Virus record (IMG/VR): IMGVR_UViG_3300045988_175993
Coordinates: 1-52,183 of that record
DNA: 52,183 nucleotides
Reading direction: 5' to 3' (one strand)
Source of the DNA: a virus
The position numbers and the translations under genes are program-made. A model generated the notes under the pieces. It had not been told where the DNA came from. It saw only the letters and a list, made by a program, of their open reading frames with translations, and did no database searches. Positions 4,783 through 52,183 of the stretch are shown here, piece after piece (position 1 is the stretch's first letter; each line of letters opens with the position of its first letter).

Positions 4783-5128
4783 CTGACTTTTCCCACTCCT
4801 TCACTTCAAATCCTGCTTTCTCAAGCCAATCTGCAACGATATATCGGTGACAGAATGAGCCTGACTTCTCCCAGCAGAGTAGCACTTTGCCTTGTAAACG
4901 TTTGCCCCATATTATGGGATCATACCCACGAAGAACGATGTTTTTATAGTAGTGTATATATTCTTTCTCAGTGATTGATCCATCCTTATATCCAGATAAA
5001 AGCCATGTAGGAGGTCTGAAATTTATTAACTCCTTGTAGTATGGTTTTCCATCCTTACAGGGCTGAGTTCTGGCAATGGATATGCCATTTTCTCCATGGT
5101 ATTTTGAAAAATAACTTGTGTATATCAT
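4772..5128 (-). CDS. DUF488-family protein (N3-subclade-like)
   Basis: MIYTSYFSKY...LLCWEKSGSFCHRYIVADWLEKAGFEVKEW matches my memory of the DUF488 hallmarks (LLC.E....FCHR..vA.WL). The stop overlaps the polA start. Confidence 0.6.
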   Translation of the reverse strand: MIYTSYFSKYHGENGISIARTQPCKDGKPYYKELINFRPPTWLLSGYKDGSITEKEYIHYYKNIVLRGYDPIIWGKRLQGKVLLCWEKSGSFCHRYIVADWLEKAGFEVKEWEKSDGI

Positions 5129-5185: not shown

Positions 5186-5446
5186 TCATATCCCATATCT
5201 TTCCCTCAGCTTTGTTTGAGCTCTTTTGACTTCATCAATTGGTCTGTGCTGCTTAATCAGATCATCTATCTCAGAGCTGAATATTCCAATGTAATACTCA
5301 TGATTACAGTGAGAACACCGAAAATACTTGTAGTATGTGTGCTTATCCACGTGCTTTTGCTTTATCTTTATGTGGAACTTCTTTCCACAAAAGTTGCATA
5401 CAGGATCGCATACTGGCTTGGGTTTATTCTTCTGAGACAGGAGCAT
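5186..5446 (-). CDS. Small zinc-ribbon protein
   Basis: 86 aa with two Cys pairs (CDPVCNFCGKKFH ... CSHCNHEY). Overlaps the end of glyA. Confidence 0.6.
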   Translation of the reverse strand: MLLSQKNKPKPVCDPVCNFCGKKFHIKIKQKHVDKHTYYKYFRCSHCNHEYYIGIFSSEIDDLIKQHRPIDEVKRAQTKLRERYGI

Positions 5447-6620
5447 AATTTTTCACCATCCCTTGTATAATCTCATCGATCTTATGTGCAACAAAGACAA
5501 AGTCTTCTTCGACATATCCTCTAGTGGTCATAGCAGCTGTCCCTATTCTGAGACCGCTTGCTTGCATAGGACTACGAGTCTCATTGGGTACACAATTCTT
5601 GTTCAAAGTTATCTTGTGTTTATCTAGCTCATCTTGAACCATCTTTCCAGACAGCTGAGGATGGGTATGAGAAAGATCAATCAAGAAAAGATGATTGTCT
5701 GTTCCTCCGGTGATCACTTCATATCCCATGGATACAAATTCTTCTGCCATTGCTTTGCTATTCTTCACAACCTGGTGGATATAACGCCAATAGTCAAGAT
5801 TAAGAGCTTCTTCAGCACAAATAGCCTTTGCTGCAATTATATTCTCAAGTGGACCACCCTGAGTCCCGGGGAATACAGCTGAATCTACTTGTTTCTCATA
5901 CTGAGGCTTACAAAAGATCAATCCACCACGAGGACCACGCAGAGTCTTATGTGTAGTTGTTGTAACTACATCTGCTAAACCAAAAGGAGAAGGATGATCA
6001 TTAGCAACAACAAGACCAGCTATGTGAGCCATGTCAACCATGAATATGGGATTGTATCCTGGATTCCGATCTCGAACATTTTGAATGAGGGAATACATCT
6101 TTTCAAAATCTATTATGCGAGGATAAGCAGAAGCTCCTGCAAGGATCAAATTGGGACGGAACAGGGAAATTTTTCTCAGAAACTCATCATAGTTGATATA
6201 ACCCTTGGCATCTACACCATAGTGAATTACTTCAAACAGTTTGCCAGATATATTCACAGGAGATCCATGAGACAAGTGTCCTCCGCAGTTGAGGCTCATA
6301 GAAAGAACTTTATCACCAGGCTTGAGAAAAGCCATCATTGCAGCCAAATTTGCATTTGCTCCAGAATGAGGCTGGACATTAACATGATAGTTAGTCTTAA
6401 AGACCATTTTCCAGAGTTCTTGGCAATAGGATTCAAGCTCGTCAACAACCTCGCAACCACCATAATATCTATGGTATGGTTTACCCTCAGCATACTTATT
6501 TGTAAAGCAAGATCCCATTGCTTTTAAGACATTGCCACTGACAAAATTCTCACTTGCAATAAGCTCAATTGTATCTATCTGTCTTTTCTGTTCTTTTTCA
6601 ATAAAATCACGAGCCCTCAT
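5424..6620 (-). CDS. glyA: Serine hydroxymethyltransferase
   Basis: ELIASENFVS, NKYAEGKPYHRYYGGCE, and the PLP-lysine motif VVTTTTHKTLRGPRGG. At 398 aa it is full length. Confidence 0.93.
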   Translation of the reverse strand: MRARDFIEKEQKRQIDTIELIASENFVSGNVLKAMGSCFTNKYAEGKPYHRYYGGCEVVDELESYCQELWKMVFKTNYHVNVQPHSGANANLAAMMAFLKPGDKVLSMSLNCGGHLSHGSPVNISGKLFEVIHYGVDAKGYINYDEFLRKISLFRPNLILAGASAYPRIIDFEKMYSLIQNVRDRNPGYNPIFMVDMAHIAGLVVANDHPSPFGLADVVTTTTHKTLRGPRGGLIFCKPQYEKQVDSAVFPGTQGGPLENIIAAKAICAEEALNLDYWRYIHQVVKNSKAMAEEFVSMGYEVITGGTDNHLFLIDLSHTHPQLSGKMVQDELDKHKITLNKNCVPNETRSPMQASGLRIGTAAMTTRGYVEEDFVFVAHKIDEIIQGMVKNYAPVSEE

Positions 6621-9440: not shown

Positions 9441-9926
9441 TTATTCTCCTTGGGTTGAAGATTTACGATTGCTCCCGTCTGTACAAGATATGCAGGCTCC
9501 TCCAGCTCGCAAAGACTTAAAATCACCATAGTGATCGCATCCAACACAAGAACAGTGTTCCGTATCAGTAAAGGTAACTTTTCTATCCTCAAGGGTGATA
9601 TCTTGGCTTTCTGTTTTCTGAAGCCACCTATCCAAGCGCTCAACTTTGCTAGCTATCCTTGACTTGATATCAGAATCTGTAAGACCCATGATATGAACGA
9701 TATGGTCCAATACAATGAATACATCTGCAACCTCATCGAGAGCTTTGTTGTACAAACCTTTTACTGCTCGTTCTGAATCGGTATACCTTGGGTATTTGGC
9801 ACAAACAGCAGCAAGCTCACAAAGTTCTTCATTCGAAACAAGGATTTGAGCAGTATCGCCATACACATGGCGAGCTCTAGCTGTGACTTTGGCTTCTTCT
9901 TCGGTCAGGAATTTGGTGTAATTCAT
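9441..9926 (-). CDS. MazG-like all-alpha NTP pyrophosphohydrolase with Cys-rich C-terminal extension
   Basis: Metal-binding pattern SNEELCELAAVCAKY ... ALDEVADVFIVLDH (E..E / E..D). The tail is CSCVGCDHYGD...CISC. Confidence 0.7.
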   Translation of the reverse strand: MNYTKFLTEEEAKVTARARHVYGDTAQILVSNEELCELAAVCAKYPRYTDSERAVKGLYNKALDEVADVFIVLDHIVHIMGLTDSDIKSRIASKVERLDRWLQKTESQDITLEDRKVTFTDTEHCSCVGCDHYGDFKSLRAGGACISCTDGSNRKSSTQGE

Positions 9927-10405
9927 CTGTCTGTATTATCCTCCATCCAATTAGGTTCATACATCACATCAATGTTGTACAAATCAAATATCTCTTCAGT
10001 TGGACCGCTTATGCGAGCAGATCCTCCATATACAACCTTTGTGATTCCAGCAGATACAATTGCTCTAGCACAAGACTCACAAGGATATCTTGTTACATAA
10101 ATAGTAGCTCCATCCGTGGATATCCCTCTTTGAGCAGCTCCTGTAATAGCATCTATCTCACTGTGAATAGCTCTACAGTCCTCAGGATTTCTATGGGATT
10201 TACTGTCATTGCCATACTTCTCTATCCTCAAGCATTCCCTGTGCTTGCACAAGTCAGGCATAGCGCGGTTTGCTCCCAAACCAATCACAGTCCCGTCTTT
10301 AATGATTGCAGATCCTACAGAGACCTTCTTACAGCCACTGTGTTTCATTGCAAAATCATATGCGAGATCGAGAACTGTGAACCTGTTTTCTGTCCGTCCA
10401 GTCAT
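9923..10405 (-). CDS. dCMP/CMP deaminase (zinc-dependent)
   Basis: HSEIDAI (H-x-E) and YPCESCARAI (PC..C). Start moved to ATG 10405 (RBS GGAGGGG), giving an ATGA overlap with the upstream stop. Confidence 0.88.
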   Translation of the reverse strand: MTGRTENRFTVLDLAYDFAMKHSGCKKVSVGSAIIKDGTVIGLGANRAMPDLCKHRECLRIEKYGNDSKSHRNPEDCRAIHSEIDAITGAAQRGISTDGATIYVTRYPCESCARAIVSAGITKVVYGGSARISGPTEEIFDLYNIDVMYEPNWMEDNTDR

Positions 10406-11220
10406 TTTAACCCCTCCATGAATTCTTGAATTTCTTTCCAATCAAACTTGATACTCTCAACCCCTGAGCGGGTCATAGCAACCTTGATCAATCCAAGGTG
10501 AGTACAAGCACGTTGGAACTTTCGTACTCTGCGATGCTGTTTCTCTTGTATTGTTCCTCTTTCTGAGGCATTACAGCCCCCTTTACCAACCCCCATAGCT
10601 GTACAATCATACTGTATCTCAGTGGTCTTTACACACTCAAGACCGTATGTATAGCATTCAAGTTGAAGAAACAAGTCTTCATTCCCCACAAGCCTGCTAG
10701 TCTTATAATTCAACCCAGCTTCTACAATGGCTTTTACATTTATGCCCACAGCTTGTTGAAGCTGCGCTCGAGGACAAGAACCAAGGTCTGACTCTTTCAT
10801 AGACCAACTGAAAGGACGATATGAAGCTCCGAACATTGCCTCATCACCCCAAAGCATCTCCCAATACAGAAGAACATCGGTCCAATTCTGAGGCTCACCC
10901 ATGATTGTTCCAGAAGCTCTGACGAATTGCTTCTCCTCATCCCAAACAGAAAAGTCCAACCGACCGACATCATCATCTATCATGAATATCCGATCAATTC
11001 CTTTTGAATAAGCATAATTGACCATCTTCTGCCGAGTTTCTCCAATGTTGCGGACTTTTTTCAACTTCACTATATGTGTATCAGGTCTCTTCTTCAACCA
11101 AGCATAATCGCTTGCTTCTTCCTCTCTGACAAATACATATAGGGGAAACTCATACAAAACACTTCGCTTGAGGAAAGTTGCATTGGGTCTTTGATACGAA
11201 GGTACAAATACAGGTATCAT
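10402..11220 (-). CDS. GT-A-fold glycosyltransferase-like protein (candidate DNA-base glycosyltransferase)
   Basis: N-terminal IPVFVPSYQRP and a DxD motif in IFMIDDDVGR. It sits between a Pplase-like gene and the deaminase. The family assignment is tentative. Confidence 0.55.
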   Translation of the reverse strand: MIPVFVPSYQRPNATFLKRSVLYEFPLYVFVREEEASDYAWLKKRPDTHIVKLKKVRNIGETRQKMVNYAYSKGIDRIFMIDDDVGRLDFSVWDEEKQFVRASGTIMGEPQNWTDVLLYWEMLWGDEAMFGASYRPFSWSMKESDLGSCPRAQLQQAVGINVKAIVEAGLNYKTSRLVGNEDLFLQLECYTYGLECVKTTEIQYDCTAMGVGKGGCNASERGTIQEKQHRRVRKFQRACTHLGLIKVAMTRSGVESIKFDWKEIQEFMEGLK

Positions 11221-11686: not shown

Positions 11687-12694
11687 TCAGCCCTTTCCAT
11701 TGTATTTCTTTCTTGGTCTACCTGTACCATCTTTAGCTCTGATGTATTTGGACAACTCACAGAAACAATTCTCAAGGCTCATTACATTGAAGCACTGATC
11801 GTACTCGGGAAGATCCCAGAATATCTCAGAACAATCCCAATCTTTGCCAAGGACTTCTTTGAAGAGCCTTTCTAGGTTATCTCTAACCCAAAAGATACAT
11901 TCCTCATAGCTCATCCCGTCTCTATCCTTGAACAGGTAATTCAACCCCATCTGACATCCAGGACCAGCAATAGTGAATTCATTCTCAGAGAACGGGAACT
12001 GCTTGATATAAGTCATATCGACAAATATTTGATAAGCCAAGAAATTCCCAAGTCCCATATAGCTTCGGAGTGAATCATATACGTCAGATTGCTTTCTAGC
12101 TGCCTTAATCTGACTCACGATATCCTCATCAAGAAGATGCCGTATAAAGTAGAGGATTCTCATCTCCATACTATTATCAGGAGTATCGTTGGGCAGATAC
12201 CACTTTAGTGCGCGTTTCAGACCTCCAGTGTTAAATGCACCAGTGAAGAAAATGCGATGAGGATCGTCTTTTAGAGCAGCTTCGAACAAAGATCTATACC
12301 ACTCAGGATTCCATCTCTCTTCAGACTCATAGAATGCAATAGGCATACCAATCAACTCTGAAGTCTCATGCTTATTATAGAGCCTGAATAGGATACAATT
12401 CATCAATTTGTCTTCATAGCAAAGAGCGGGATTGGTTGCTATGTTCTTAATAAGCCACTTGCTTTCTCGGTCATGCTCTCTACGGATATTGGTGAATCTG
12501 AAATTCAGCAATACATCGTCTTTAGTCCAGGGAGGATCTTTCTTGAGCACATCTTTCTTGATGTGAATACCATATCTTCGCTTGATGAATTGATACAAGT
12601 ATTTGAGATTTCTTTCATCAATTACTGGATGAGCTTTCTCAATCTTCTTTTGATTCACACCACAGAATTTGGTATCAGCCTTTTTAGTCTTCAT
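11687..12694 (-). CDS. aGPT-Pplase (alpha-glutamyl/putrescinyl thymine pyrophosphorylase) clade-3-like protein; the CDS is certain, the function tentative
   Basis: PPWTKDDVLLNFRFTNIRREHDRESKW and YMGLGNFLAYQIFVDMTY...AGPGCQMGL match what I recall of this HhH-glycosylase-fold family. No HMM was run. Confidence 0.5.
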   Translation of the reverse strand: MKTKKADTKFCGVNQKKIEKAHPVIDERNLKYLYQFIKRRYGIHIKKDVLKKDPPWTKDDVLLNFRFTNIRREHDRESKWLIKNIATNPALCYEDKLMNCILFRLYNKHETSELIGMPIAFYESEERWNPEWYRSLFEAALKDDPHRIFFTGAFNTGGLKRALKWYLPNDTPDNSMEMRILYFIRHLLDEDIVSQIKAARKQSDVYDSLRSYMGLGNFLAYQIFVDMTYIKQFPFSENEFTIAGPGCQMGLNYLFKDRDGMSYEECIFWVRDNLERLFKEVLGKDWDCSEIFWDLPEYDQCFNVMSLENCFCELSKYIRAKDGTGRPRKKYNGKG

Positions 12695-13278
12695 CTGGCA
12701 TTCTCCATAAGCTTTGATGCAATCATGTCCGCCTGATGAGTCCAGAGCACATTGGGAAAAGCTCGAATTGCTTCATCATACTCACCCCAAGCATCCGTTT
12801 CATAAGCCCCCATATGGAATCTGATACAAAGCCTTTCTTCTGTGGTAAGATACATGTAGTCTTCAATTTTCAAAACTGAATCCATTCCATGAATTTCTGA
12901 AAACTTGATCTGATCAACCTTATGGGTGTAACCATACTCAAGTTCTCCTGTCAAAGGATTCTTTTCTTGAAATGTCTGATAAGCCCCGATTTTGGTAACA
13001 TCATGAAGCATACCGATAATCAGAGGACTCGAGCTTCTGGTCCAAGTGCAGAATCCTGCCTGAGTAAACCATTCCAGTTGCTGGAACACGTTCCTCGAGT
13101 GATCATACAGTCCTCCATAGTAGTTGCAGTGATGCTTTGCCGCAGCCGGAGCTCTGAAGAAGTCCGTGGTACAAAGCCACTTAAAGGGGAATTCATCTTT
13201 TGAGATATTGTTGAGCCTCAGAAGTCTTTCCAGGTCTTCCTGCCTCGCTTCCTCAGAATCAAATAAGGTTTTCAGCAT
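12691..13278 (-). CDS. HD-domain phosphohydrolase
   Basis: GGLYDHS, MLHDVTK and HQADMIAS give the H...HD...D metal ligands. It is the first gene behind the promoter at 13312-13340. Confidence 0.8.
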   Translation of the reverse strand: MLKTLFDSEEARQEDLERLLRLNNISKDEFPFKWLCTTDFFRAPAAAKHHCNYYGGLYDHSRNVFQQLEWFTQAGFCTWTRSSSPLIIGMLHDVTKIGAYQTFQEKNPLTGELEYGYTHKVDQIKFSEIHGMDSVLKIEDYMYLTTEERLCIRFHMGAYETDAWGEYDEAIRAFPNVLWTHQADMIASKLMENAR

Positions 13279-16190: not shown

Positions 16191-16610
16191 TTAATTTTCC
16201 TCCTTGTGGTCAAATATATGCCAAAGATTATAACCTTTCCGCTCAAGAATCTCCAAACAATCATCCAAATAGAAGATATCTTGTTCAGGATAGACAGTGC
16301 CTGAAAGCTTCTGATTCAGCTCTGTAAGATTTGGAGCATTGGTTTCATCATAGACGATCTTGGGAAGATCCTTGCCTCGATAACCTATATCGAACCACTG
16401 AAGATCAACTTTGTATTTCCGGAACATCATCTCCCGCATCACTTTAAGATGATAGCAGAACAGCCACTCTCTAGGGTGATCAAATACATAGCCAACTACG
16501 GGATCAGGGGTGTTCCAGTTTCCTTTTCTGAGGGCGCAGCACTCACGGTGTGCGCCCAGCAGGTAACGTTTGGGAAGATATGGAATCAAGGCTTCATGCC
16601 AGAGCTTCAT
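16191..16610 (-). CDS. TIGR02328-like protein (pyrimidine-dimer DNA glycosylase/DenV-related fold)
   Basis: The N-terminus MKLWHEALIPYLPKRYLLGAHRECCALRKGNW is the hallmark I recall for this family (MRLWH..LIP.LP...LL.q.RECCa.R). Confidence 0.6.
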   Translation of the reverse strand: MKLWHEALIPYLPKRYLLGAHRECCALRKGNWNTPDPVVGYVFDHPREWLFCYHLKVMREMMFRKYKVDLQWFDIGYRGKDLPKIVYDETNAPNLTELNQKLSGTVYPEQDIFYLDDCLEILERKGYNLWHIFDHKEEN

Positions 16611-19713: not shown

Positions 19714-19932
19714 ATGGAAATTTGTTATCCCAAGGCTGATATGCTGAATTTTGAAGATCTAAATGTCACAGATGTTTTCTCAGTAGATTATGAAACTTGG
19801 ATAAAGATTCACCCTGTGGTGTATCAGCGTTGCACAGTAAACTCGTTGAATCCTCGCACAGGAGAATATCGTTACACTGATAATGATACTCTTGTAAGAC
19901 GATTTGAAGCAGAACTGACTATTGTAAAGTGA
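19714..19932 (+). CDS. Hypothetical protein (72 aa)
   Basis: Start set at ATG 19714, just after the terS stop (RBS aaggatgag). Confidence 0.6.
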   Translation: MEICYPKADMLNFEDLNVTDVFSVDYETWIKIHPVVYQRCTVNSLNPRTGEYRYTDNDTLVRRFEAELTIVK

Positions 19933-19940
19933 GGAAAGCG

Positions 19941-20285
19941 ATGAGATACACTGTAGTCTTTGATTTCGATGGAGTTATCCATTCATACAAGTCCGGATGG
20001 AAAGGCGTCACAGAAATTCCTGATCCTCCTGTCTCCGGTATTAAAGAAGCGATAGACAAGATTCGTGAGAAATTCGATGTTGTTGTAGTATCTACTCGTT
20101 GTATTTCTCCGAAAGGTACAGAAGCAATAAAGAGTTGGCTCAACAAGTACAATATTGTTGTAGACGGTATTGCTGCTGAGAAACCTCCAGCTATTTGTTA
20201 CGTAGACGATCGTGCAATTTGTTTTGACGGTAATGCAGCAACGCTTCCTGATCTCGTCGAGAACTTTAAGGCATGGTGGGAATGA
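19941..20285 (+). CDS. HAD-superfamily phosphatase-like protein
   Basis: Motif I VVFDFDGVIH; a late Asp motif YVDDRA. RBS gaggaaag. Confidence 0.65.
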   Translation: MRYTVVFDFDGVIHSYKSGWKGVTEIPDPPVSGIKEAIDKIREKFDVVVVSTRCISPKGTEAIKSWLNKYNIVVDGIAAEKPPAICYVDDRAICFDGNAATLPDLVENFKAWWE

Positions 20286-20449: not shown

Positions 20450-21118
20450 ATGACAACCAATGAAACTGATTTTCTGCATTTCTTGAAAACAAGGGATATG
20501 GACTTTGAATTTGCTGGCAAGATGGATATGCCTGTGCTGCAGCCAGTTGAGATTGATGATCTCAGCAAAGTTGATCTTCTTGGTTTCAACTACGCAACAA
20601 ATCCTCAAAACATGATCGACAAAGAAGACAGGTTTATCCACTTCTTCCTGGCAGATGGATGCTTTGCAAAGATTTGGGATAATCTTGAATACTATGAAGG
20701 GATTCTGAATCAGTATCGTGGCATAGTCATGCCCAACTTCTCAATGTACACTACAATGCCTCGTGCTATGCAGATTTGGAATTGCTACAGGAATATGTGG
20801 CTTGCTTCGTATTATCAACAACACGGGATCACAGTGATTCCTTCAATCCAGTGGAGCGACGAAGAATCCTTTGAATACACCTTTGATGGCATGCCAAGGC
20901 ACAGTTGCCTCTGTGTTTCTTCGGTCGGATGTGTTCAAAATCCTCGAGTTAGACAGCTGTTTAATCAAGGCTTTAGAAGAGCACTCACAGAGCTTGAGCC
21001 CACACAGCTCATTGTATATGGCAAGCTTACAGATGATATGCGAAGCAGAATCAAAGTTCCTTATATCAATATAGAATCTGAGATGAAGCAACGCATTGAT
21101 AAATGGAAAGACAAGTAA
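20450..21118 (+). CDS. DUF4417-domain protein
   Basis: FIHFFLADGCFAKIWDN...VMPNFSMYTTMPRAMQIWNCYRNMWLASYYQQHGITVIPSIQW fits the DUF4417 pattern as I recall it. Confidence 0.65.
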   Translation: MTTNETDFLHFLKTRDMDFEFAGKMDMPVLQPVEIDDLSKVDLLGFNYATNPQNMIDKEDRFIHFFLADGCFAKIWDNLEYYEGILNQYRGIVMPNFSMYTTMPRAMQIWNCYRNMWLASYYQQHGITVIPSIQWSDEESFEYTFDGMPRHSCLCVSSVGCVQNPRVRQLFNQGFRRALTELEPTQLIVYGKLTDDMRSRIKVPYINIESEMKQRIDKWKDK

Positions 21119-44262: not shown

Positions 44263-44649
44263 TTAGCAACCGAACTCTTCAATATAGTTCTGCTTGCGCT
44301 CTTCCTCGGTGTAGACATCGCTGTCCCAGTAAGTCCCGGCAACGTAGTGGTCAAAGTTGTAGTGATTCTTGATACAGCAACCGGCACTGACGGAGAACTT
44401 GCCGTATTCATAAGTCACCGTGCAGCGGGGATATGCACGAAGAACGGATTTTACCTGAGCCTGAATCAACTCAGGCAGCTCTTCAAAAGGCATCTCGCCG
44501 GACTTGAAGACCTTGTAGGACAGCTTTCTTTCAGGATGCTGCTTAATAGCCTCATCAATCAGCTCAGTCATCTTTTCAGTAGTGTAATCCAGGGAAGTCA
44601 GGAAGTTAATGCCATCGATGCAGGTCATTTTAATCATATCATTTTTCAT
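44263..44649 (-). CDS. Hypothetical protein (128 aa)
   Basis: Preceded by the conserved leader ATCTGAAAGGAGA and by the promoter at 44702. Confidence 0.75.
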   Translation of the reverse strand: MKNDMIKMTCIDGINFLTSLDYTTEKMTELIDEAIKQHPERKLSYKVFKSGEMPFEELPELIQAQVKSVLRAYPRCTVTYEYGKFSVSAGCCIKNHYNFDHYVAGTYWDSDVYTEEERKQNYIEEFGC

Positions 44650-44676
44650 TGTAGTATTCTCCTTTCAGATTTAAGA

Positions 44677-44733
44677 GGGGTTTCTTTTAACTTACAAGCA
44701 TATTCTACTACGAATTTCTACAAAAGTAAAGTC
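44677..44733. repeat. 57-bp exact repeat (promoter plus 5' leader), copy 2
   Basis: Identical to 17845-17901. Confidence 0.95.
44702..44730 (-). promoter_or_regulatory. Sigma-A-like promoter (-35 TTTACT, 17 bp, -10 TAGAAT)
   Basis: Minus strand reads CTTTACTTTTGTAGAAATTCGTAGTAGAAT. Confidence 0.7.
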
Positions 44734-44758
44734 TTGTAAACTTGTAAAGAAGTTATAA

Positions 44759-44802
44759 AAACTGAAGCATTACAAGATTTATTGTCAAGAATGCTTCAGT
44801 TT
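44759..44802 (-). terminator. Rho-independent terminator after the SNF2 helicase gene
   Basis: 13-bp perfect stem aaactgaagcatt/aatgcttcagttt. The minus-strand 3' flank is TTTTTATAAC. Confidence 0.7.
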
Positions 44803-44862
44803 AATTATCAAATCCAAGGATTTTCATGAAAAATCAAGAAATTCAAGAATTTTTACAAAATT

Positions 44863-46260
44863 TTAGATTGTTTCTGAACCTTTCATAACAAGGTTGATGT
44901 AATCTTTCTTTTCTTTCAAACATCGAAGAATCTTTTGATCCACAGTCTCTCCTGAATCCATTGTAGCAACAAAGTGGTAGTATAAACAAGGTTGTTCTTG
45001 CCCTGGTCTATGTATTCGTTTGAGAGCCTGTTCATATTTCCCCAAAGAGTGATCCAAAGTATAGAAGATACAAATATGTGCTCTAGTCAAATTTATACCC
45101 TCAGAACCTGATGTATACTGTACACCTAAGATCTGTGTTTTTCCTTGCTGCCACTCTGATAATGTATTGTTGCTTCCTGAAACTTCAGAATAGGGGAATC
45201 CCAATCGTTCAGCAACCTTTTGTATAGAATACAGATCTTTCCTGAACCGAGCAAATACTACAATCGGCTCCCCTTCAGGCATCTCTTGAAGGAATTTGTA
45301 CAGGAATGTTCTTCTATAGGTACTGATTCTTTTCAGCTCTTTAGTTCCATCATCATACTCAAGGGGCAAATATCCACTAGTCACTTGCTGTTTACGGATA
45401 ACCATAGCAAGAGCATTATTCACTGTCATGAAACCATCTCCATCTATGACGGATCCTTCCTTTGACAGTTCTTTGTAAACTTGTTGGGTCTTCTGATCCA
45501 TAGGAATTTGGATTACCATCCGAGTTGTTTTTGGCAATTTCACCGTGGATTCCATATAGAAAGCACAACTGAACATCTTTTCTTTAAGCTCATCCAAATT
45601 CACATAGGGCTGTTTTTTGTTGAGAACAGGAAAACCAACTTTTGTAGACAGCTGAACATCAAGATTCTGGTACCTTGCACAAAAATTAGCATAATTTGTG
45701 CCGAATATAGTTGGATCTAAAAACCTATATTGTGCATATACATCCATAGGATTCTCAGCAAGAGGAGTCCCTGTCATCAGATATCTGTGAGAAACCTGTT
45801 TACCAAGCTTTGTTAAGAACCAAGAACATTTGCTTCCAGGGGATTTTATTCGATGACTCTCGTCGCATATAACACAATCAAGACCAAGCTTCTTATAGAA
45901 CCAGACTCGGTCTAAAGGCTTCCTCCAAACTGAGTCATAGTTGCAGATGAACACCAAAGGATCTTCTGTTTTCATATTCATTGCTGCTGTAAGTTCATCT
46001 ATCTTTTGCTCTGTACTCAATTCTGATAGAAAGAAGATATTGTTCTTCGGTATACTTGAATGGAGTTGAATTTCTCCTGGCCATACTGAGCTAGGCTTCT
46101 TGGGAGCAACAACCAAAATTCGTTTGAATCCTCGGTTGACTATTAAATCAACCATGATCTTTGTCTTTCCAGATCCAGGCTTTGTGTATAAAGCTCCTGC
46201 ATCTCTATTATACAGATATTGCAAAGCCTTGAGCTGATGTGCCCAAGGCTTTGTTTTCAT
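44863..46260 (-). CDS. SNF2-family DEAD/H helicase
   Basis: Walker A KPGSGKT, DESH box VICDESHRIK, and helicase-C motifs. Start set at ATG 46260 (MKTKPW), giving an ATGA overlap with the upstream small ORF. Confidence 0.88.
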   Translation of the reverse strand: MKTKPWAHQLKALQYLYNRDAGALYTKPGSGKTKIMVDLIVNRGFKRILVVAPKKPSSVWPGEIQLHSSIPKNNIFFLSELSTEQKIDELTAAMNMKTEDPLVFICNYDSVWRKPLDRVWFYKKLGLDCVICDESHRIKSPGSKCSWFLTKLGKQVSHRYLMTGTPLAENPMDVYAQYRFLDPTIFGTNYANFCARYQNLDVQLSTKVGFPVLNKKQPYVNLDELKEKMFSCAFYMESTVKLPKTTRMVIQIPMDQKTQQVYKELSKEGSVIDGDGFMTVNNALAMVIRKQQVTSGYLPLEYDDGTKELKRISTYRRTFLYKFLQEMPEGEPIVVFARFRKDLYSIQKVAERLGFPYSEVSGSNNTLSEWQQGKTQILGVQYTSGSEGINLTRAHICIFYTLDHSLGKYEQALKRIHRPGQEQPCLYYHFVATMDSGETVDQKILRCLKEKKDYINLVMKGSETI

Positions 46261-46409
46261 TTCGAATCCCTTGTACTGCATTCTATCTCCTCTACAAAAG
46301 AGATTACCTCGGCAAAAGTACAGTTCTGCTTTTTGAGAATCCCTTGAACAAATACATCATAGAGGTCTGAATCCATTTCTTTACTGATTTCAATAGAAAT
46401 ATCTTTCAT
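46257..46409 (-). CDS. Small hypothetical protein (50 aa)
   Basis: ATG 46409. Translation MKDISIEISKEMDSDLYDVFVQGILKKQNCTFAEVISFVEEIECSTRDSK. The stop overlaps the helicase ATG. Confidence 0.45.
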   Translation of the reverse strand: MKDISIEISKEMDSDLYDVFVQGILKKQNCTFAEVISFVEEIECSTRDSK

Positions 46410-46412
46410 TTG

Positions 46413-46790
46413 TTAATATCCTACAACTGTGTATTCGGAAACACATCCATTTAATTCAGGATTTGTCACGTGTATAGCACCATTTGAAACAAGTCCAGGA
46501 GCTCTCTTCAAGGTGTTCATAAACTCTTTCAAAGTTGCCATACTGTAGATTATCCCTGTACTGCAACCAACAGAACCCCATTTTCTGAGCTCGAGTCGTT
46601 GCTTTTGGCTAGCCTCATATTTGTTATCAGGAGACTTCAGCTCAATCTTGAACATACGTCCTTCATAGCATCCAGTTATATCAGGTCTTCCTGACTGATG
46701 GGAATTTCCTGATACATTCTCTGCCTTGCACCCTGGAATACTGTTTAGGTATTCCAGGGCATTAGATTGGAAATTTGATTCAAGACCCAT
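46413..46790 (-). CDS. VRR-NUC domain nuclease
   Basis: GRPDITGCYEGRMFKIELKSP is the D...E-x-K motif. Start set at ATG 46790 (MGLESNF). Confidence 0.75.
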   Translation of the reverse strand: MGLESNFQSNALEYLNSIPGCKAENVSGNSHQSGRPDITGCYEGRMFKIELKSPDNKYEASQKQRLELRKWGSVGCSTGIIYSMATLKEFMNTLKRAPGLVSNGAIHVTNPELNGCVSEYTVVGY

Positions 46791-47199
46791 AAGCAAACCC
46801 TGTAGGACGTAGCCAAGACAACCCCAACTTCTGTGCCCAAAATACAGGAGACTGGGAACAAGGTATGGATTTGTCATCTATGTAGACATCTGCATACACT
46901 TTGCGAGTATCGTTATGGAACATGGCAATAGTCTCTGGTATGTTCTGATTTACTGCATCAAATTCCAAACCCATGGATTTACAGAATTCTACAGCAGCAT
47001 CAAGATTCCGAGCAGGTGTATCATTATCTCGACTTGTCCAGAGAATCAATTTAATCCCACATTTCTGCAAGGTTATGCAGATATTAAACATTTCCTGAAA
47101 CGGTTTTCCTATCTCGGGAAATTTATCCTCTACAAGAGTTCCATCAAAATCTATTGCTACAATCTTGGGAAGCTCTTCCATGTTTGCTTTAGTTATCAT
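46780..47199 (-). CDS. HAD-superfamily phosphatase-like protein
   Basis: Motif I IVAIDFDGTLV, motif II ILWTSR, motif IV YIDDKS. Start set at ATG 47199 (ATGA overlap). Confidence 0.7.
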   Translation of the reverse strand: MITKANMEELPKIVAIDFDGTLVEDKFPEIGKPFQEMFNICITLQKCGIKLILWTSRDNDTPARNLDAAVEFCKSMGLEFDAVNQNIPETIAMFHNDTRKVYADVYIDDKSIPCSQSPVFWAQKLGLSWLRPTGFAYGS

Positions 47200-47561
47200 T
47201 TTCGTAGATCCCTTTCCATATGTGTTGTTACCCAAACGCGATTCCAGCCTTGCCGGTCTATTGTTGCTTCACGCATAAGATGGGGATATGCATTAGAGTA
47301 CTTGTCTTTGATCAAACTCCTCAAAATGATGATATCTTTCAAAGTTGTCATGGGCAGATCTATATTGAAATCTTCTTTTGCCCAAGCAGAAACGCATTCA
47401 CCGATATCTCGACGCTCTATCCCTTTCTGTTCAAGGAATTTGACATACAAAGATTTTGGTGCATAGCAAAAGTGCTCCCAAGAGATCCTATCTCGGTTTT
47501 CATCAAGCACCTTCAAGGCAAACTTGACTAAACCATCTTTCATCAGTTCATCCCAACTCAT
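47196..47561 (-). CDS. Hypothetical protein (121 aa)
   Basis: Coupled between the hydroxymethylase and the HAD gene. No motif recognised. Confidence 0.7.
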   Translation of the reverse strand: MSWDELMKDGLVKFALKVLDENRDRISWEHFCYAPKSLYVKFLEQKGIERRDIGECVSAWAKEDFNIDLPMTTLKDIIILRSLIKDKYSNAYPHLMREATIDRQGWNRVWVTTHMERDLRK

Positions 47562-48259
47562 TAAGAACCAACTCCCGGAGATACAGCCAGAGTCTTCTCC
47601 CAGTCTCTTTTGTACAGATGCAAAGACCCAGCGACATGCGTATAAGTTCCTATGGATGTCCCAAGCTCCATAGCCATCTTCATCTGAAGAAAACAGAAGC
47701 TGAACATATCATAGGGTACACCCATCCAGATATCATTTGACCGCATATACACAGTCATATGAAGTGCATAATCGCGGATGAAAAACTGAAGAGCTATTGT
47801 ACAGGGTACATCTTTGGTGGGAGCGTTACTGGCATCCTTGATGTGTATCACTGCCTGACGGCTATTGGGATCTGCTTTGAGAAGATTCTTCACATATTCC
47901 CATTGATCAAACCCAAACTTCTCAAAGATTCTCCAACCATAAGCAGAATTATTGGTCTTCCCATCATCAGAAATGTCTGCCCACTTTTGAGCAAACCGGG
48001 AGATATCTTTGACCTTGTTGGAGCCGGAAAGATACCAAGCCAGTTCTCCTACAGCATACCGCATAGGCATTTTGCGAATAGGACTGGTGACGATGTTTCG
48101 AGTAGGATCGTCTACAACGAAGATAGCATCCAGGAATTCTCCAACTACATCTCCATCTCTGGAAGAATCAGCAAACCCAGAGTTAGCTTGAGCATTAAGC
48201 TCGGTGAAAGCTTTTTCCCAAACTTCATTGACAGTTCGTCCTTCAAACATGATAGCCAT
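47561..48259 (-). CDS. Thymidylate-synthase-fold pyrimidine hydroxymethylase, T4 gp42 (dCMP hydroxymethylase)-like
   Basis: GELAWYLSG, NSAYGWRIF, ADPNSRQAVIHI, catalytic Cys DVPCTIALQFFIRD, YMRSNDIWMGVPYDMF (Asp where ThyA has Asn177), GSLHLYKRD. Start set at ATG 48259 (RBS aaggaggt). Confidence 0.8.
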   Translation of the reverse strand: MAIMFEGRTVNEVWEKAFTELNAQANSGFADSSRDGDVVGEFLDAIFVVDDPTRNIVTSPIRKMPMRYAVGELAWYLSGSNKVKDISRFAQKWADISDDGKTNNSAYGWRIFEKFGFDQWEYVKNLLKADPNSRQAVIHIKDASNAPTKDVPCTIALQFFIRDYALHMTVYMRSNDIWMGVPYDMFSFCFLQMKMAMELGTSIGTYTHVAGSLHLYKRDWEKTLAVSPGVGS

Positions 48260-48260
48260 A

Positions 48261-48395
48261 TTAAACCTCCTTGATATCAACCCGGATAATGTTCTTCACC
48301 CGGTATACAGTAATGTTTCCTTTCGTGAGCCTATCAGCCACACCTTTGGAAATAAGGGTCACAGCCTCAGTCAGCCAATCGATATCAATCTTCAT
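48261..48395 (-). CDS. Small hypothetical protein (44 aa)
   Basis: RBS ggagga upstream of ATG 48395. Translation MKIDIDWLTEAVTLISKGVADRLTKGNITVYRVKNIIRVDIKEV. The rest of track ORF 48261..48590 overlaps the kinase gene. Confidence 0.45.
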   Translation of the reverse strand: MKIDIDWLTEAVTLISKGVADRLTKGNITVYRVKNIIRVDIKEV

Positions 48396-48873
48396 TGAGT
48401 TTATCCTCCATAGATTCTCCAACTCTTGTATCAGCCATTTCCATTTCTTCAGTGTCATAGATGAGTACAGGGCAATAAGAGTTGTGTATGAGTTCGGCAT
48501 ATGCATTAACCAGATGCATATATGAACAAGAAAGCTGTTCCTCTCTAGCAGCAAGGCGTTTGCTAACTGTAGGCCAACTTGCTTGTACATAGATTATCTT
48601 TCCGCCATAATCTCGCATCATCTTCTCAAGCCGATGAAGTTGATCCTCAGTTATATTTCTCTCACTGGGAGACTGATAAGCAAACTGACCCCAAAAGAAT
48701 CTGTCTGCAATGATATTCTGGTTTATGCTATCCTGAAGAATATCACAGAACCAGTTCCAATTGTTGGGTGTTTCTCTGGTAGCATGGATTATCTTTGCAT
48801 CCAATATTGGAGCAAGAGTTTCAGCGAGTGTAGTTTTCCCGCAACCATCAATTCCTTCAAGAACAATAAGCAT
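48385..48873 (-). CDS. Thymidylate-kinase-family dNMP kinase
   Basis: P-loop LIVLEGIDGCGKTT and the DRF motif ADRFFWGQFAYQ. Confidence 0.82.
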   Translation of the reverse strand: MLIVLEGIDGCGKTTLAETLAPILDAKIIHATRETPNNWNWFCDILQDSINQNIIADRFFWGQFAYQSPSERNITEDQLHRLEKMMRDYGGKIIYVQASWPTVSKRLAAREEQLSCSYMHLVNAYAELIHNSYCPVLIYDTEEMEMADTRVGESMEDKLNED

Positions 48874-48876
48874 ATT

Positions 48877-49527
48877 TTACCTCCAACCAATAAATAGTGT
48901 TGTCCAGTTCTTTTCTGTCAATACAGGATCTTTCAAGACTTCTGGAAATTGCTTTTTGAGATTTTTAATCAATCGAGGAGCCATCTTTCTGTTATCCCCA
49001 TGAAGAAGATGAAGCTCAATTGCTATCGCTTCAACAGTGAGGGGAAGATCTTTGAAATTCAAATCATATTCTCCTCCCTCGATATCTATCTTGAGGATCT
49101 GAGGGGAATATCGATCTAAGGCATCCTTAAAGGAAACTGTTTTAACCTCATAGGATTCTCTTCCCTGTATCTCTTGGAGAGAATGCATGCCTTTATTCTT
49201 TCCTGAATTCACATAGAAGAGTGCAGTTCCTGTAGAATTTGATACAGCTCTCTTTATGAGCTTGACTCGGTCATCAAAGCCCTGCTTCTGGAACATTCCT
49301 ATGTTGTCTTTATCAGGCTCAAATGAAACAACCTGAATAGCTCCATGCGCTAATGCTTGGAATGTAAAAGCACCTATATTGGCTCCGATATCCATCACAG
49401 ATTTACCTTTGCAGAGCTCGAGCAATGGATTGTATGTTCGTTGTTCTTTAATAACATACTCATCCAAAGTATCCGGTCTACACCAAAGACCAGTGGTTTT
49501 TTCTTTGTACAATGTCTCACTCCTCAT
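48877..49527 (-). CDS. FkbM-family SAM-dependent methyltransferase
   Basis: VMDIGANIGAFTF, VVSFEPD, and the hallmark ILKIDIEGGE. Confidence 0.8.
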   Translation of the reverse strand: MRSETLYKEKTTGLWCRPDTLDEYVIKEQRTYNPLLELCKGKSVMDIGANIGAFTFQALAHGAIQVVSFEPDKDNIGMFQKQGFDDRVKLIKRAVSNSTGTALFYVNSGKNKGMHSLQEIQGRESYEVKTVSFKDALDRYSPQILKIDIEGGEYDLNFKDLPLTVEAIAIELHLLHGDNRKMAPRLIKNLKKQFPEVLKDPVLTEKNWTTLFIGWR

Positions 49528-50110
49528 ATTTTGATATAGTTTTTAAGAATGCAGGTAACATTCTTGACTTTGGTACTTTAGAAGAATCAACTCGTATACA
49601 GGTGAATCCTTCTCCCTTGAATTTTTCGTGACTTCTCTCAACAGAGATTCGTTTTCCTGCCACGAGATCCTCTTTGATGGGTTTACCCCCATTCCGCTTT
49701 TGGATACGGTCTAAGCAGACCTCGAGTGGCGGAAGCAGAGATATGATTAAGACCTGAATACCAAATTGCTTTTCAACTCTATGGAAGAGCTCTGCATAGC
49801 TGGAGAATACTGTGCTGCACAAGATACCCTCCATGATGATATTGAAATCCGGATACATGCTAATAGCCGCATATAGTGTTGCTATAGTGCATTCCATATT
49901 TCGAATACCATCGAGTCCCCCAGTTTTATTGAAATATGTACCCAAAGCAATCCAACCATAAGAAGGAAATGCTGTAAAGGCTCCCATTCGTTTTCCATCG
50001 CTGTATTTCAGTTCTTGAACAAACATCTCAGGGTCATCCATCATTGACATAGGAATGGTAGATTTTCCTGCACCGTTGCAACCTCTAATGTTCACAAGAA
50101 TTCTACTCAT
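49517..50110 (-). CDS. P-loop kinase (candidate 5-hydroxymethylpyrimidine DNA kinase, 5-HMUDK-like; function tentative)
   Basis: Walker A GCNGAGKST. About 200 aa. Translationally coupled to the Pplase-like gene upstream and the methyltransferase downstream. Confidence 0.5.
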   Translation of the reverse strand: MSRILVNIRGCNGAGKSTIPMSMMDDPEMFVQELKYSDGKRMGAFTAFPSYGWIALGTYFNKTGGLDGIRNMECTIATLYAAISMYPDFNIIMEGILCSTVFSSYAELFHRVEKQFGIQVLIISLLPPLEVCLDRIQKRNGGKPIKEDLVAGKRISVERSHEKFKGEGFTCIRVDSSKVPKSRMLPAFLKTISKYEE

Positions 50111-51042
50111 TCAAGTACTCCTGTAGTCAGGAAGAGTTTCCCTCGAGATTTACGAATACCCTGCCATCCATGGCATTCTCCTCGTAAACTATCTTGAACA
50201 GTCTTTTCTCGCAGATCCCAAATATCAATGCCATACTTTGCAAGGATCTTTTCTGTAGACAAGCATTCCTCCAATTGTCTATCAGCATAGTATCCAAGAT
50301 ATCTGGACCCTTTGAAGAGCTTGCGAAAAAAGCAAAGATTAGACTCAATCACAATTTTAGGCTTGCTAAACCTGCTTGCTAAAGTATCAACCATCTTGTT
50401 ATATCTATCAAGATCATAATCTTTGTTCTCAATGGCTTCGTCATTACAAAGAAGATGTGCCATTCCTTCAACTACAGTTTGTCCGCAATTTTTCCAGTCA
50501 AGATGTGTAGGATCAGAATAGTATTCCGGCTGCATACCATACAAAGCATCAAAGAAGAGGTATGCTCCATGTGGACCAAAGAATCGCCAGTTCTTTGTAA
50601 TCTCTTTGTATGTTGTATCAAAACCCTGAGCAAGTAGAGGTTCAAGATACTCTGTCATGTTTCCATGAGATAGCTTGTAGATAGATCGTATAGCCGGAAT
50701 GACTTGATCATTATTCTTTAGATACTTCTTGTCTGGATTGAACCATAGTGTATCTTTTGAGGCTCTCCAAAAGGTTGAAATCGCTTTTGGTCTTACATCA
50801 CTAATAGCCGGAAATTCTTCAAGGAATCTCATAGTTGTAGTACAAGAATATGAAAGTCCATAAAGAACAGCTAACCACAAACAAGATTCAAGATCAAGGT
50901 CTCTTGCTTTTACATAAGGTCTCATGAGCTGATAGTCTTCCCCATCCATATATTTTGTAACCGGATCAGGAGTCATCAATTCAGAGAACACTTTTCTTCT
51001 CAGTTTTTTAGAATCCCCGGGGATTCCATAGTCATTTAGCAT
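50107..51042 (-). CDS. aGPT-Pplase-like (HhH-glycosylase-fold) protein, paralogue-like to 11687..12694; function tentative
   Basis: Start set at ATG 51042 (GGAGGAG RBS 6 nt upstream; the track start is a TTG inside the RBS). RFFGPHGAYLFFDALYGM aligns with YMGLGNFLAYQIFVDMTY of the other ORF. Confidence 0.4.
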   Translation of the reverse strand: MLNDYGIPGDSKKLRRKVFSELMTPDPVTKYMDGEDYQLMRPYVKARDLDLESCLWLAVLYGLSYSCTTTMRFLEEFPAISDVRPKAISTFWRASKDTLWFNPDKKYLKNNDQVIPAIRSIYKLSHGNMTEYLEPLLAQGFDTTYKEITKNWRFFGPHGAYLFFDALYGMQPEYYSDPTHLDWKNCGQTVVEGMAHLLCNDEAIENKDYDLDRYNKMVDTLASRFSKPKIVIESNLCFFRKLFKGSRYLGYYADRQLEECLSTEKILAKYGIDIWDLREKTVQDSLRGECHGWQGIRKSRGKLFLTTGVLE

Positions 51043-51058
51043 AGACATCTCCTCCAAA

Positions 51059-51821: not shown

Positions 51822-52183
51822 TTAATTTGTTTCAACACTTATGATTTCCATGAATTTTTCATAAGTGGGGTTGATAATGCGAGCAGGGACTTTGATGCTT
51901 GGATCAATCTGAAGCTTTGTCCAATAGTAGGGATTAGGACCAATGTCAGCAGCATACTTCACGACTTCTTTAGTCGAATTGCCTTTTACAACTTCCTTTA
52001 CAATCTTTGTTGTATGGATACCATAATTTGCCATGCCTTCCAAATAAGTGCGAGCACCTTTTGAAACTGAAGGACGAACATCAGGAGATATCTCATCTTC
52101 CATACCCTCGATTGTATCTGTACTCTCATGACAAGTCAAGACAACTATGTGTTTTTTCGCAAGCTTATACATATCCTTGATGA
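51822..52183 (-). CDS. Sak4-like AAA_24 ATPase, C-terminal part (same gene as 1..492)
   Basis: Stop at 51822. The frame is open to the right edge, and bases 52065-52183 duplicate 1-119. Confidence 0.8.
   Translation of the reverse strand, partial: IKDMYKLAKKHIVVLTCHESTDTIEGMEDEISPDVRPSVSKGARTYLEGMANYGIHTTKIVKEVVKGNSTKEVVKYAADIGPNPYYWTKLQIDPSIKVPARIINPTYEKFMEIISVETN
52065..52183. repeat. Terminal overlap, identical to 1-119
   Basis: See the feature at 1-119. Confidence 0.95.

Follow-up and report, generated by a model that had tools for sequence, protein, structure and literature searches.

The window analysed here, the whole of the 52,183-nucleotide viral record IMGVR_UViG_3300045988_175993 of IMG/VR, carries on its minus strand, at positions 47561–48259, a gene for a 232-residue homologue of thymidylate synthase (TS). 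We find that its product is very probably a deoxycytidylate (dCMP) hydroxymethylase, with a predicted function like that of T4 gp42. Because the genes beside this cytosine-type enzyme have to date been met only in thymine-decorating phages, the window also suggests an undescribed route of DNA hypermodification. On balance we favour a scheme in which all of the hypermodification machinery draws its hydroxymethyl handle from the one cytosine-type hydroxymethylase, through either of two new downstream routes. A preliminary description, made from the letters alone, had already named the enzyme a T4-gp42-type dCMP hydroxymethylase; it overlooked the genes for a DNA kinase (5-HMUDK) for 5-hydroxymethyldeoxyuridine (5-hmdU), an amino-acid:DNA transferase (ADDT), a glycosyltransferase and a deaminase, with which the downstream chemistry is more complicated than plain 5-hydroxymethylcytosine (5hmC).

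A significant profile match, the predicted fold and the catalytic residues all place the 232-residue protein in the TS superfamily, and on these grounds a chance match is excluded. PF00303 matched with E = 1e-26 (94 bits against a cut-off of 24.3), PHROG thymidylate-synthase families matched with a best value of 7e-53, and a sequence search of the PDB returned 128 distinct TS-fold sequences, the best being MilA (E = 4e-36). The motifs DVPCTIALQFFIRD, MRSND, VPYD and GSLHLYKR are all present, as the preliminary description had seen, and the catalytic set Cys153, Glu72, Tyr107, Arg173, His214 and Tyr216 (Cys146, Glu58, Tyr94, Arg166, His207 and Tyr209 of Escherichia coli ThyA) fell into place in every alignment. 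An AlphaFold model with a predicted local-distance difference test (pLDDT) score of 76, lower (55–70) in region 60–160, is moderately confident and so served for fold ranking only, not for active-site geometry; Foldseek ranked MilA first (template-modelling (TM) score 0.73), with TS structures and those of T4 dCMP hydroxymethylase at about 0.65. When the window was searched by tblastn with six diverse TS-family queries, 47561–48259 was the sole matching locus, which bears out the claim that the genome has a single enzyme of this family. The open reading frame (ORF) starts with an ATG that has a strong Shine–Dalgarno sequence, AAGGAGG, 6–7 nt on its 5′ side, and gene callers choose the same ATG on a 52,165-bp metagenome contig in ENA that encodes an identical protein. 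Given this agreement, an alternative in-frame TTG start upstream, at 48280, is less likely.

Substrate and product were read from pairwise HMMER and MAFFT alignments, with positions given in E. coli ThyA numbering. Reference enzymes with experimentally grounded products were T4 gp42 (5-hydroxymethyl-dCMP), MilA (5-hydroxymethyl-CMP), RB69 gp48 (5-hydroxy-dCMP), the TS homologue of Xp12 (5-methyl-dCMP), SPO1 gp29 (5-hydroxymethyl-deoxyuridylate, 5hmdUMP), E. coli ThyA, and the TS homologues of SP-10, Ab18, M6 and ViI, all four from phages with DNA derived from 5-hydroxymethyluracil (5hmU). In both methods Asp184, the Asp of VPYD, aligns with ThyA Asn177, T4 gp42 Asp179 and MilA Asp186. Asp, not Asn, thus occupies the specificity position when the query is aligned with ThyA, T4 gp42 and SPO1, just as an alignment by eye had indicated, and the T4 string MRSNDVVFGFRND, quoted with Asp179 at that position, proved correct on the gp42 sequence. 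The residues of the query at 143/146/147/165/169/177 are D C T M D D, the same as in both T4 gp42 and MilA. The five deoxyuridylate (dUMP) hydroxymethylases (SPO1 gp29, SP-10, Ab18, M6 and ViI) read D C N N D N, E. coli ThyA L C H Q D N, the Xp12 dCMP methylase N C P L D D and RB69 gp48 E C T M N D.

These positions carry known functional weight. Position 177 switches between dUMP and dCMP, N177D giving dCMP preference, and no other positions separate cytosine-modified from unmodified metavirome contigs as well as 177 and 147 do (PMC8670742). An acid at 143 correlates with hydroxymethylation and has been tied to water access (PMC13326640); in the query the acidic residue at the ThyA Leu143 position is Asp150 (in KDVPC), aligned with gp42 Asp145 and with an Asp of MilA. 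Asp169 is kept as Asp176 (in MRSND). At the positions of ThyA Arg126 and Ser167 the query has Arg134 and Ser174, where MilA has Lys and Ala. The ribonucleotide preference of MilA is due to that pair, Lys133 and Ala176, in place of which deoxy-specific enzymes have Arg and Ser (PMC5175136), and the Arg134/Ser174 pair therefore indicates a deoxyribonucleotide as the predicted substrate. In sum, the query has the Asp at 177, the acid at 143, the Asp at 169 and the Arg126/Ser167 equivalents of a dCMP hydroxymethylase, and it agrees with T4 gp42 at Asp143, Cys146, Thr147, Met165, Asp169, Gly173 and Asp177 and again at Arg126, Ser167, Glu58, Tyr94, His207 and Tyr209. From the observed fold, residue signature, conservation and gene context we infer substrate and product: the prediction of 5-hydroxymethyl-dCMP synthesis gains strong support, since Thr147, Met165, the acid at 143, Asp169 and the Arg/Ser pair now join Asp177.

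The folate genes fit a hydroxymethylating enzyme, one that returns tetrahydrofolate (THF). An exact 119-nt repeat joins the window ends (1–119 = 52065–52183); it is the overlap from a circular assembly at k = 119, the genome is complete with a true size of about 52,064 bp, and gene absences are therefore meaningful. Pfam and PHROG scans of the roughly 70 window ORFs found no ThyA, ThyX or dihydrofolate reductase (DHFR), although no search was made with a ThyX sequence itself, and an Xp12 DHFR query against the window gave noise only. A full-length serine hydroxymethyltransferase (SHMT) is encoded (Table 1); of about 70 related contigs, only the window itself and the one nearest to it (91% identity) showed the gene. 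The earlier argument from an SHMT without a DHFR accordingly fits, and it is echoed in Xp12, where a HAD hydrolase, the dCMP-methylating TS homologue, a dCMP deaminase and DHFR lie in a row (44377–46980), the DHFR gene being two genes from the methylase with the deaminase gene between them. This gene row supports the view that DHFR genes accompany methylating enzymes but not hydroxymethylating ones.

Other activities of the TS fold have to be weighed against a dCMP hydroxymethylase. An ordinary thymidylate synthase is what PF00303, the PHROG families and most GenBank annotations of homologues would suggest, yet this is scarcely credible: all eight NCBIfam ThyA equivalog models fell well under their cut-offs (best 86.7 bits against 327; cut-offs 108–576), Asp/Thr/Met/Asp stand at 143/147/165/177 in place of Leu143, His147, Gln165 and Asn177, and only 16 residues follow the Tyr209 equivalent compared with 55 in ThyA. 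The C-terminal segment of ThyA closes the active site for hydride transfer. The same segment argues against a dCMP methylase of the Xp12 type, which would make 5-methyl-dCMP with dihydrofolate (DHF) as by-product, since it counts 61 residues in Xp12. Xp12 and the window share an Asp at 177 and a dCMP-deaminase-family gene in the genome, and such pairs of Asp177-type TS homologue and deaminase are common (bioRxiv 10.1101/2024.12.05.627091). However, the D/T/M of the query at 143/147/165 is hydroxymethylase-like where Xp12 has N/P/L, the window genome has no counterpart of the DHFR that Xp12 encodes, and the kinase and glycosyltransferase would require a hydroxyl group, all of which makes a methylase very unlikely. 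We consider a flavin/O2-dependent 5-hydroxy-dCMP synthase, as represented by RB69 gp48, DLP3 gp80 and HY126 AfhB, to be highly improbable. RB69 gp48 does have Asp177, an acid at 143, Thr147 and Met165 in common with the query, glycosyltransferase genes are present, and AfhB appeared among the Foldseek matches at ranks 21 and 42, but the D169N substitution that marks these synthases (PMC13326640) is not there: the query retains Asp176, and Gly180, where RB69 gp48 has Asn and Val. MilA is also a far better match in both the PDB search and Foldseek, and a phage SHMT makes sense only with a folate enzyme. With MilA as the nearest enzyme of solved structure (44% identity, E = 4e-36, Foldseek rank 1), a ribonucleotide (CMP) hydroxymethylase of the MilA/BcmA type might be proposed. 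We hold it to be just as improbable, because Arg and Ser replace Lys133 and Ala176 in the query, an A176S/K133R double mutant of MilA loses its CMP activity (PMC5175136), and the gene sits in a DNA replication and nucleotide metabolism module beside a deoxynucleoside monophosphate (dNMP) kinase.

A dUMP hydroxymethylase of the SPO1, SP-10, M6 and ViI type, with the Asp tolerated or with dual specificity, would fit the neighbouring genes. In that case dCMP deaminase would yield dUMP, the enzyme would convert it to 5hmdUMP, and 5hmU in DNA would feed 5-HMUDK and ADDT; the textbook gene set for this route is present (PF18748, PF18723, PF18724, dCMP deaminase and dNMP kinase; PMC8989533), and the nearest isolate homologue is labelled deoxyuridylate hydroxymethyltransferase, albeit automatically. 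Several further points count against a cytosine-specific enzyme. The kinase, helical-domain and ADDT families have been characterised only on 5hmU (PMC5889632, PMC8565368), each characterised 5-HMUDK system pairs with an Asn177-type dUMP hydroxymethylase (PMC5889632, PMC8989533 and our own alignment), and a dCMP deaminase belongs to the classical dUMP route too (PMC8989533); moreover, the residue rules derive from a limited number of tested enzymes and the structural model is of moderate confidence. Against a dUMP hydroxymethylase, however, all five enzymes examined read Asn/Asn/Asn at 147/165/177 where the query reads Thr/Met/Asp, a difference at three independent positions, and they are 346–383 residues long with a large C-terminal extension, compared with 232 residues here. 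The Thr/Met/Asp signature is invariant in the family, and Enterococcus phage VPE25, a relative of that family, has DNA with modified cytosine. We therefore regard a dUMP hydroxymethylase as unlikely, and a dCMP hydroxymethylase as the best account of the gene.

Conservation and descent were examined in the relatives. Forty-eight IMG/VR loci encode relatives at 53–91% identity, and the full signature is kept in 48/48; a wider search gave 2312 homologues at E <= 1e-10, the best 120 of 2312 being all unnamed metagenomic proteins. The description of the enzyme as T4-gp42-type stands for the residue signature, which is identical at all diagnostic positions, and not for descent. Identity to MilA is 44% (E = 4e-36) as against 29% to T4 gp42 (E = 1.5e-13), close kinship (orthology) with gp42 was not found, and a neighbour-joining tree without bootstrap support placed gp42 outside the group formed by the query, VPE25 and MilA. 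As far as this rough tree can be read, the enzyme groups by descent with the VPE25-type phage enzymes in a clade apart, closer to MilA than to gp42. Agathobaculum phages encode the closest homologues from cultured isolates (57% identity, with a cytosine-type signature), followed by Enterococcus phages 9183 and VPE25 (42–44%). In Agathobaculum phage AB434P2 the gene at 3838–4500 is called a 'deoxyuridylate hydroxymethyltransferase' in GenBank yet encodes the Thr/Met/Asp signature, and to judge by these residues the label is probably wrong.

VPE25 offers an experimental anchor within the clade of the query itself. Its TS homologue (43.5% identity) has the same signature, and its DNA is protected from bisulfite, resistant to MspI and cut by PvuRts1I (PMC4999554); that is, it behaves as glucosylated 5hmC. 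DNA of the 5hmC type in a siphovirus of Firmicutes is consequently not new, having a precedent in VPE25 (PMC4999554), and Asp177-type TS homologues are common in metaviromes (PMC8670742).

What sets the window apart is the company the enzyme keeps. The thymidine-hypermodification set is represented by the 5-HMUDK P-loop kinase (PF18748), the helical domain (PF18723) and the transferase (PF18724). A source of 5hmU in the form of a dUMP hydroxymethylase or a thymine dioxygenase was not found: the only TS-family gene is of the cytosine type, and Pfam and PHROG scans of the window ORFs gave no match to a TET/JBP dioxygenase. A scan for kinase homologues yielded 48 loci, 38 of which (about 34 distinct contigs) place the kinase beside a TS homologue of the cytosine type, and because so many share this arrangement the association is conserved, not accidental. 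It extends to kinases and hydroxymethylases with as little as 29% and 49% identity, respectively, to the proteins of the window, whereas SP-10 and all distant kinases in the same scan adjoin uracil-type enzymes. To our knowledge the pairing of a cytosine-type hydroxymethylase with 5-HMUDK/ADDT, a TET-associated-type DNA glycosyltransferase (TAGT) and a deaminase is undescribed in the literature searched.

The proposed reaction would start with attack of Cys153 on C6 of dCMP and transfer of the methylene group of methylene-THF (CH2-THF) to C5. Water, let in by the acid at the ThyA Leu143 position, would then hydrate the exocyclic methylene to give 5-hydroxymethyl-dCMP and THF; there would be no hydride transfer and so no DHF. 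Asp184 would select cytosine, Arg134 and Ser174 deoxyribose, and the phage SHMT could recharge THF. The later steps, all of them inferred, would have the adjacent dNMP kinase and a host nucleoside-diphosphate kinase make the triphosphate, the phage PolA incorporate it and, after replication, the TAGT-type glycosyltransferase probably glycosylate 5hmC.

The kinase and amino-acid transferase module would need a hydroxymethyl-pyrimidine in DNA, for which there are two possible sources. In one, 5-hydroxymethyl-deoxycytidine (5hm-dC) nucleotides would be partly deaminated by the phage dCMP-deaminase-family enzyme to 5-hydroxymethyl-deoxyuridine (5hm-dU) nucleotides, placing 5hmU in DNA; the DNA would then carry glycosylated 5hmC together with kinase/ADDT-modified 5hmU, both pyrimidines being hypermodified from a single TS homologue. 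In the other, the 5-HMUDK-type kinase and ADDT would act on 5hmC itself to give an amino-acid-modified cytosine via phospho-5hmC. Phage deaminases beside Asp177-type TS homologues do deaminate 5hm-dC and 5-methyl-deoxycytidine nucleotides, and they sit in a TS/MafB19-deam/PRA-PH/PolA neighbourhood (bioRxiv 10.1101/2024.12.05.627091), the same type as that of the window. Action of the kinase on 5hmC has been raised only as speculation, for TET clusters (Burke et al. 2021, PMC8256090), commercial 5-HMUDK is a 5hmU-selective reagent (PMC8565368), and our literature search found no report of phosphomethylcytosine or of a DNA kinase directed at 5hmC. Nearly every family member has the deaminase, whether or not it has the kinase, so that its occurrence does not separate the two routes. 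The 2026 dapT paper, which used 5-HMUDK constructs, holds no base-recognition residues that could be transferred, and no useful indication of base specificity came from searching the PDB with the sequences of ADDT, TAGT, the kinase and the NTP pyrophosphatase. We slightly favour deamination of 5hm-dC to 5hm-dU over a kinase acting on 5hmC.

Known systems each resemble part of this arrangement. T4 gp42 (PDB 1B5E, 6A9A) shares with the query the TS fold and a short C-terminus, and in both T4 and the window a dNMP kinase, a dCMP deaminase and a DNA glycosyltransferase accompany the hydroxymethylase. However, gp42, at only 29% identity, is not of the nearest clade, a 5-HMUDK or ADDT module is missing from T4, and T4 infects Enterobacteria as a myovirus where the window is a Bacillota phage of siphovirus type. 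Td and DHFR are both encoded by T4 itself (genes td and frd). MilA/BcmA of Streptomyces rimofaciens (PDB 5JNH, 5B6D) is the closest solved enzyme by both sequence and predicted fold and has the same cytosine-type and hydroxymethylase-type residues, but it differs in the Lys133/Ala176 pair that favours ribo-CMP, in a C-terminal extension of about 100 residues and in serving antibiotic biosynthesis, not DNA precursor synthesis. The TS homologues of the Enterococcus phages VPE25, VFW and 9183 have the signature of the query at 42–44% identity and form its sister group in the rough tree. These phages are likewise siphoviruses of Bacillota hosts, although their genomes are of 86 kb. A thymidylate-kinase-like gene precedes the TS homologue in phage 9183, a 171-residue 'hypothetical protein' takes that place in VPE25, and glycosyltransferase genes lie near the TS homologue in both; no homologue of 5-HMUDK, ADDT, the deaminase or TAGT was found in the regions examined of the VPE25-type phages.

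The thymidine-hypermodification phages (SP-10, PhiW-14, M6/Ab18/PaMx11 and ViI) have, like the window, a P-loop 5-HMUDK, its helical domain, ADDT, a dCMP deaminase and a kinase beside the TS homologue. They differ in the hydroxymethylase, which has Asn147/Asn165/Asn177 and not the short cytosine-type form, while the window has its kinase and helical-domain genes some 14 kb apart and a TAGT in addition. The modified-cytosine nucleotide deaminase (mSCD) module of Xp12 is alike in its Asp177-type TS homologue, dCMP-deaminase-family gene, HAD phosphatase, PRA-PH/MazG-like pyrophosphatase and PolA; it is unlike in that the enzyme methylates, with N/P/L at 143/147/165 and a full C-terminus, and that DHFR is encoded. 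The product of deamination in an Xp12-type pathway is deoxythymidine triphosphate, whereas in the window 5hm-dUTP or 5hm-dUMP would be expected.

By itself the enzyme adds one further Asp177-type dCMP hydroxymethylase, useful mainly for setting right the names under which databases list an abundant clade, 'thymidylate synthase' and 'dUMP hydroxymethyltransferase'. The wider point is a large family of phages of about 50 kb, most likely with Bacillota hosts, in which a cytosine-type hydroxymethylase is coupled to machinery that has so far defined thymidine hypermodification. If 5hm-dC nucleotides are deaminated to 5hm-dU, 5hmU DNA would be made by steps in a new order, and both pyrimidines could be hypermodified in this way; should the kinase act on 5hmC, cytosine hypermodifications of a new class would follow, together with new enzymes with which to label 5hmC. 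Either outcome bears on the evasion of restriction and CRISPR by phages, on the sequencing and amplification of such DNA in metagenomes and on the prediction of modification pathways from genomes.

Table 1. Predicted hydroxymethylase and associated genes of the window
Feature	Position	Strand	Basis
Serine hydroxymethyltransferase, full-length; would regenerate CH2-THF from THF	5424..6620	-	PF00464 E = 4e-137
MazG-like NTP pyrophosphohydrolase, candidate dCTPase and/or dTTPase	9441..9926	-	phrog_2245 6e-11; kept beside deaminase
dCMP-deaminase-family enzyme	9923..10441	-	PF14437 4e-20, PF00383 3e-18; PDB 2hvv, 1vq2, 4p9c, 7fh4
TET-associated-type DNA glycosyltransferase (TAGT)	10402..11220	-	PF20691 6.6e-11; phrog_842 1.6e-11
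Stand-alone helical-domain protein of 5-hmdU DNA kinase	11687..12694	-	PF18723 6e-65
Metal-dependent phosphohydrolase-like protein (PHROG annotation only)	12691..13278	-	phrog_28876 1.8e-21, phrog_5889
HAD-type phosphatase (BT0820 family), candidate nucleotide phosphatase	46780..47235	-	NF046079 3e-27, below cut-off; phrog_1238
Conserved 121-residue ORF directly downstream of hydroxymethylase	47196..47561	-	kept in 43/48 related loci
TS-fold pyrimidine hydroxymethylase, predicted dCMP hydroxymethylase, 232 residues	47561..48259	-	PF00303, MilA best PDB match, residue signature
dNMP kinase, thymidylate-kinase-like; predicted hydroxymethyl-dNMP kinase	48385..48873	-	PF02223 3.7e-10, dNK 1.8e-8, phrog_761 4e-18
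FkbM-family methyltransferase	48877..49527	-	PF05050 4.5e-10, phrog_8156 1.4e-19
P-loop DNA kinase, 5-hmdU DNA kinase family	49517..50110	-	PF18748 1e-21; 45% identical to SP-10 5-HMUDK kinase domain
Amino-acid:DNA transferase (ADDT) homologue	50107..51057	-	PF18724 4.5e-7, 30.3 bits vs cut-off 26.2; phrog_3271 1e-16

The modification genes fall into two groups on the circular genome (Table 1), the cluster of deaminase, pyrophosphatase, TAGT, helical-domain and phosphohydrolase-like genes lying about 14 kb from the hydroxymethylase. Across the family, the core consists of the hydroxymethylase, deaminase, pyrophosphatase, helical-domain protein and HAD phosphatase, the last kept beside the hydroxymethylase; the P-loop kinase with ADDT, the TAGT and the dNMP kinase, which in the window is directly upstream of the hydroxymethylase, are variable, and ADDT is swapped for divergent ADDT types in relatives. 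The annotation of phrog_842, matched by the TAGT, is beta-glucosyl-HMC-alpha-glucosyltransferase. The kinase, ADDT, TAGT and helical-domain proteins are without models in NCBIfam. No match was found in Pfam or the PDB for the pyrophosphohydrolase, in Pfam for the phosphohydrolase-like protein, or in the Pfam and PHROG scans for the conserved 121-residue ORF.

The 5-hmdU DNA kinase is split here, its P-loop and helical-domain genes being well separated. In SP-10 kinase and helical domain form one 637-residue protein and in Ab18 they are two adjacent genes; the stand-alone protein of the window matches the C-terminal half of SP-10 5-HMUDK and Ab18 ORF13. Because the helical-domain gene persists beside the deaminase even in relatives without the P-loop kinase and ADDT, this protein may have a role of its own. 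The FkbM gene sits between the dNMP kinase and the DNA kinase; among relatives such a gene was seen only in the window and one other locus (L017), and its product may methylate or otherwise tailor the appended group or the hydroxymethyl base. A second small HAD-type paralogue (phrog_1238; BT0820-family model) is encoded at 19929–20285 (+) beside the terminase genes. The RB69 arabinosyl-5-hydroxycytosine cluster has a gene annotated 'phosphoheptose isomerase', a description that phrog_1238 also bears, the likeness being one of annotation.

The structural module comprises the small and large terminase subunits (TerS, TerL), portal, scaffold, major capsid protein, tail tube and a 713-residue tape measure, and Pfam and PHROG scans of the window ORFs found no sheath gene in it; the morphotype is siphovirus-like on this evidence. 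A Bacillota host is likely because the nearest isolates by capsid protein are Clostridium phages, followed by Enterococcus and Brevibacillus phages; for the family, Clostridia such as Agathobaculum or Clostridium_AP are the candidates. A megablast search of GenBank phages with a 7-kb region gave zero matches, so there is no close cultured relative. Between the small and large terminase genes, at 20450–21118 (+), lies a gene for a 222-residue protein of nuclease-annotated PHROG families (phrog_940 6.5e-53; phrog_8680 8e-61), and the early region encodes a DenV-like pyrimidine-dimer DNA glycosylase (16191–16610 (-); PF03013, 3e-16). A small ORF at 4772–5128 (-), immediately 5′ of PolA and overlapping its start by 11 nt, matched phrog_2450 (3e-20) and, weakly and under the cut-off, DUF488-N3a (E = 0.0013).

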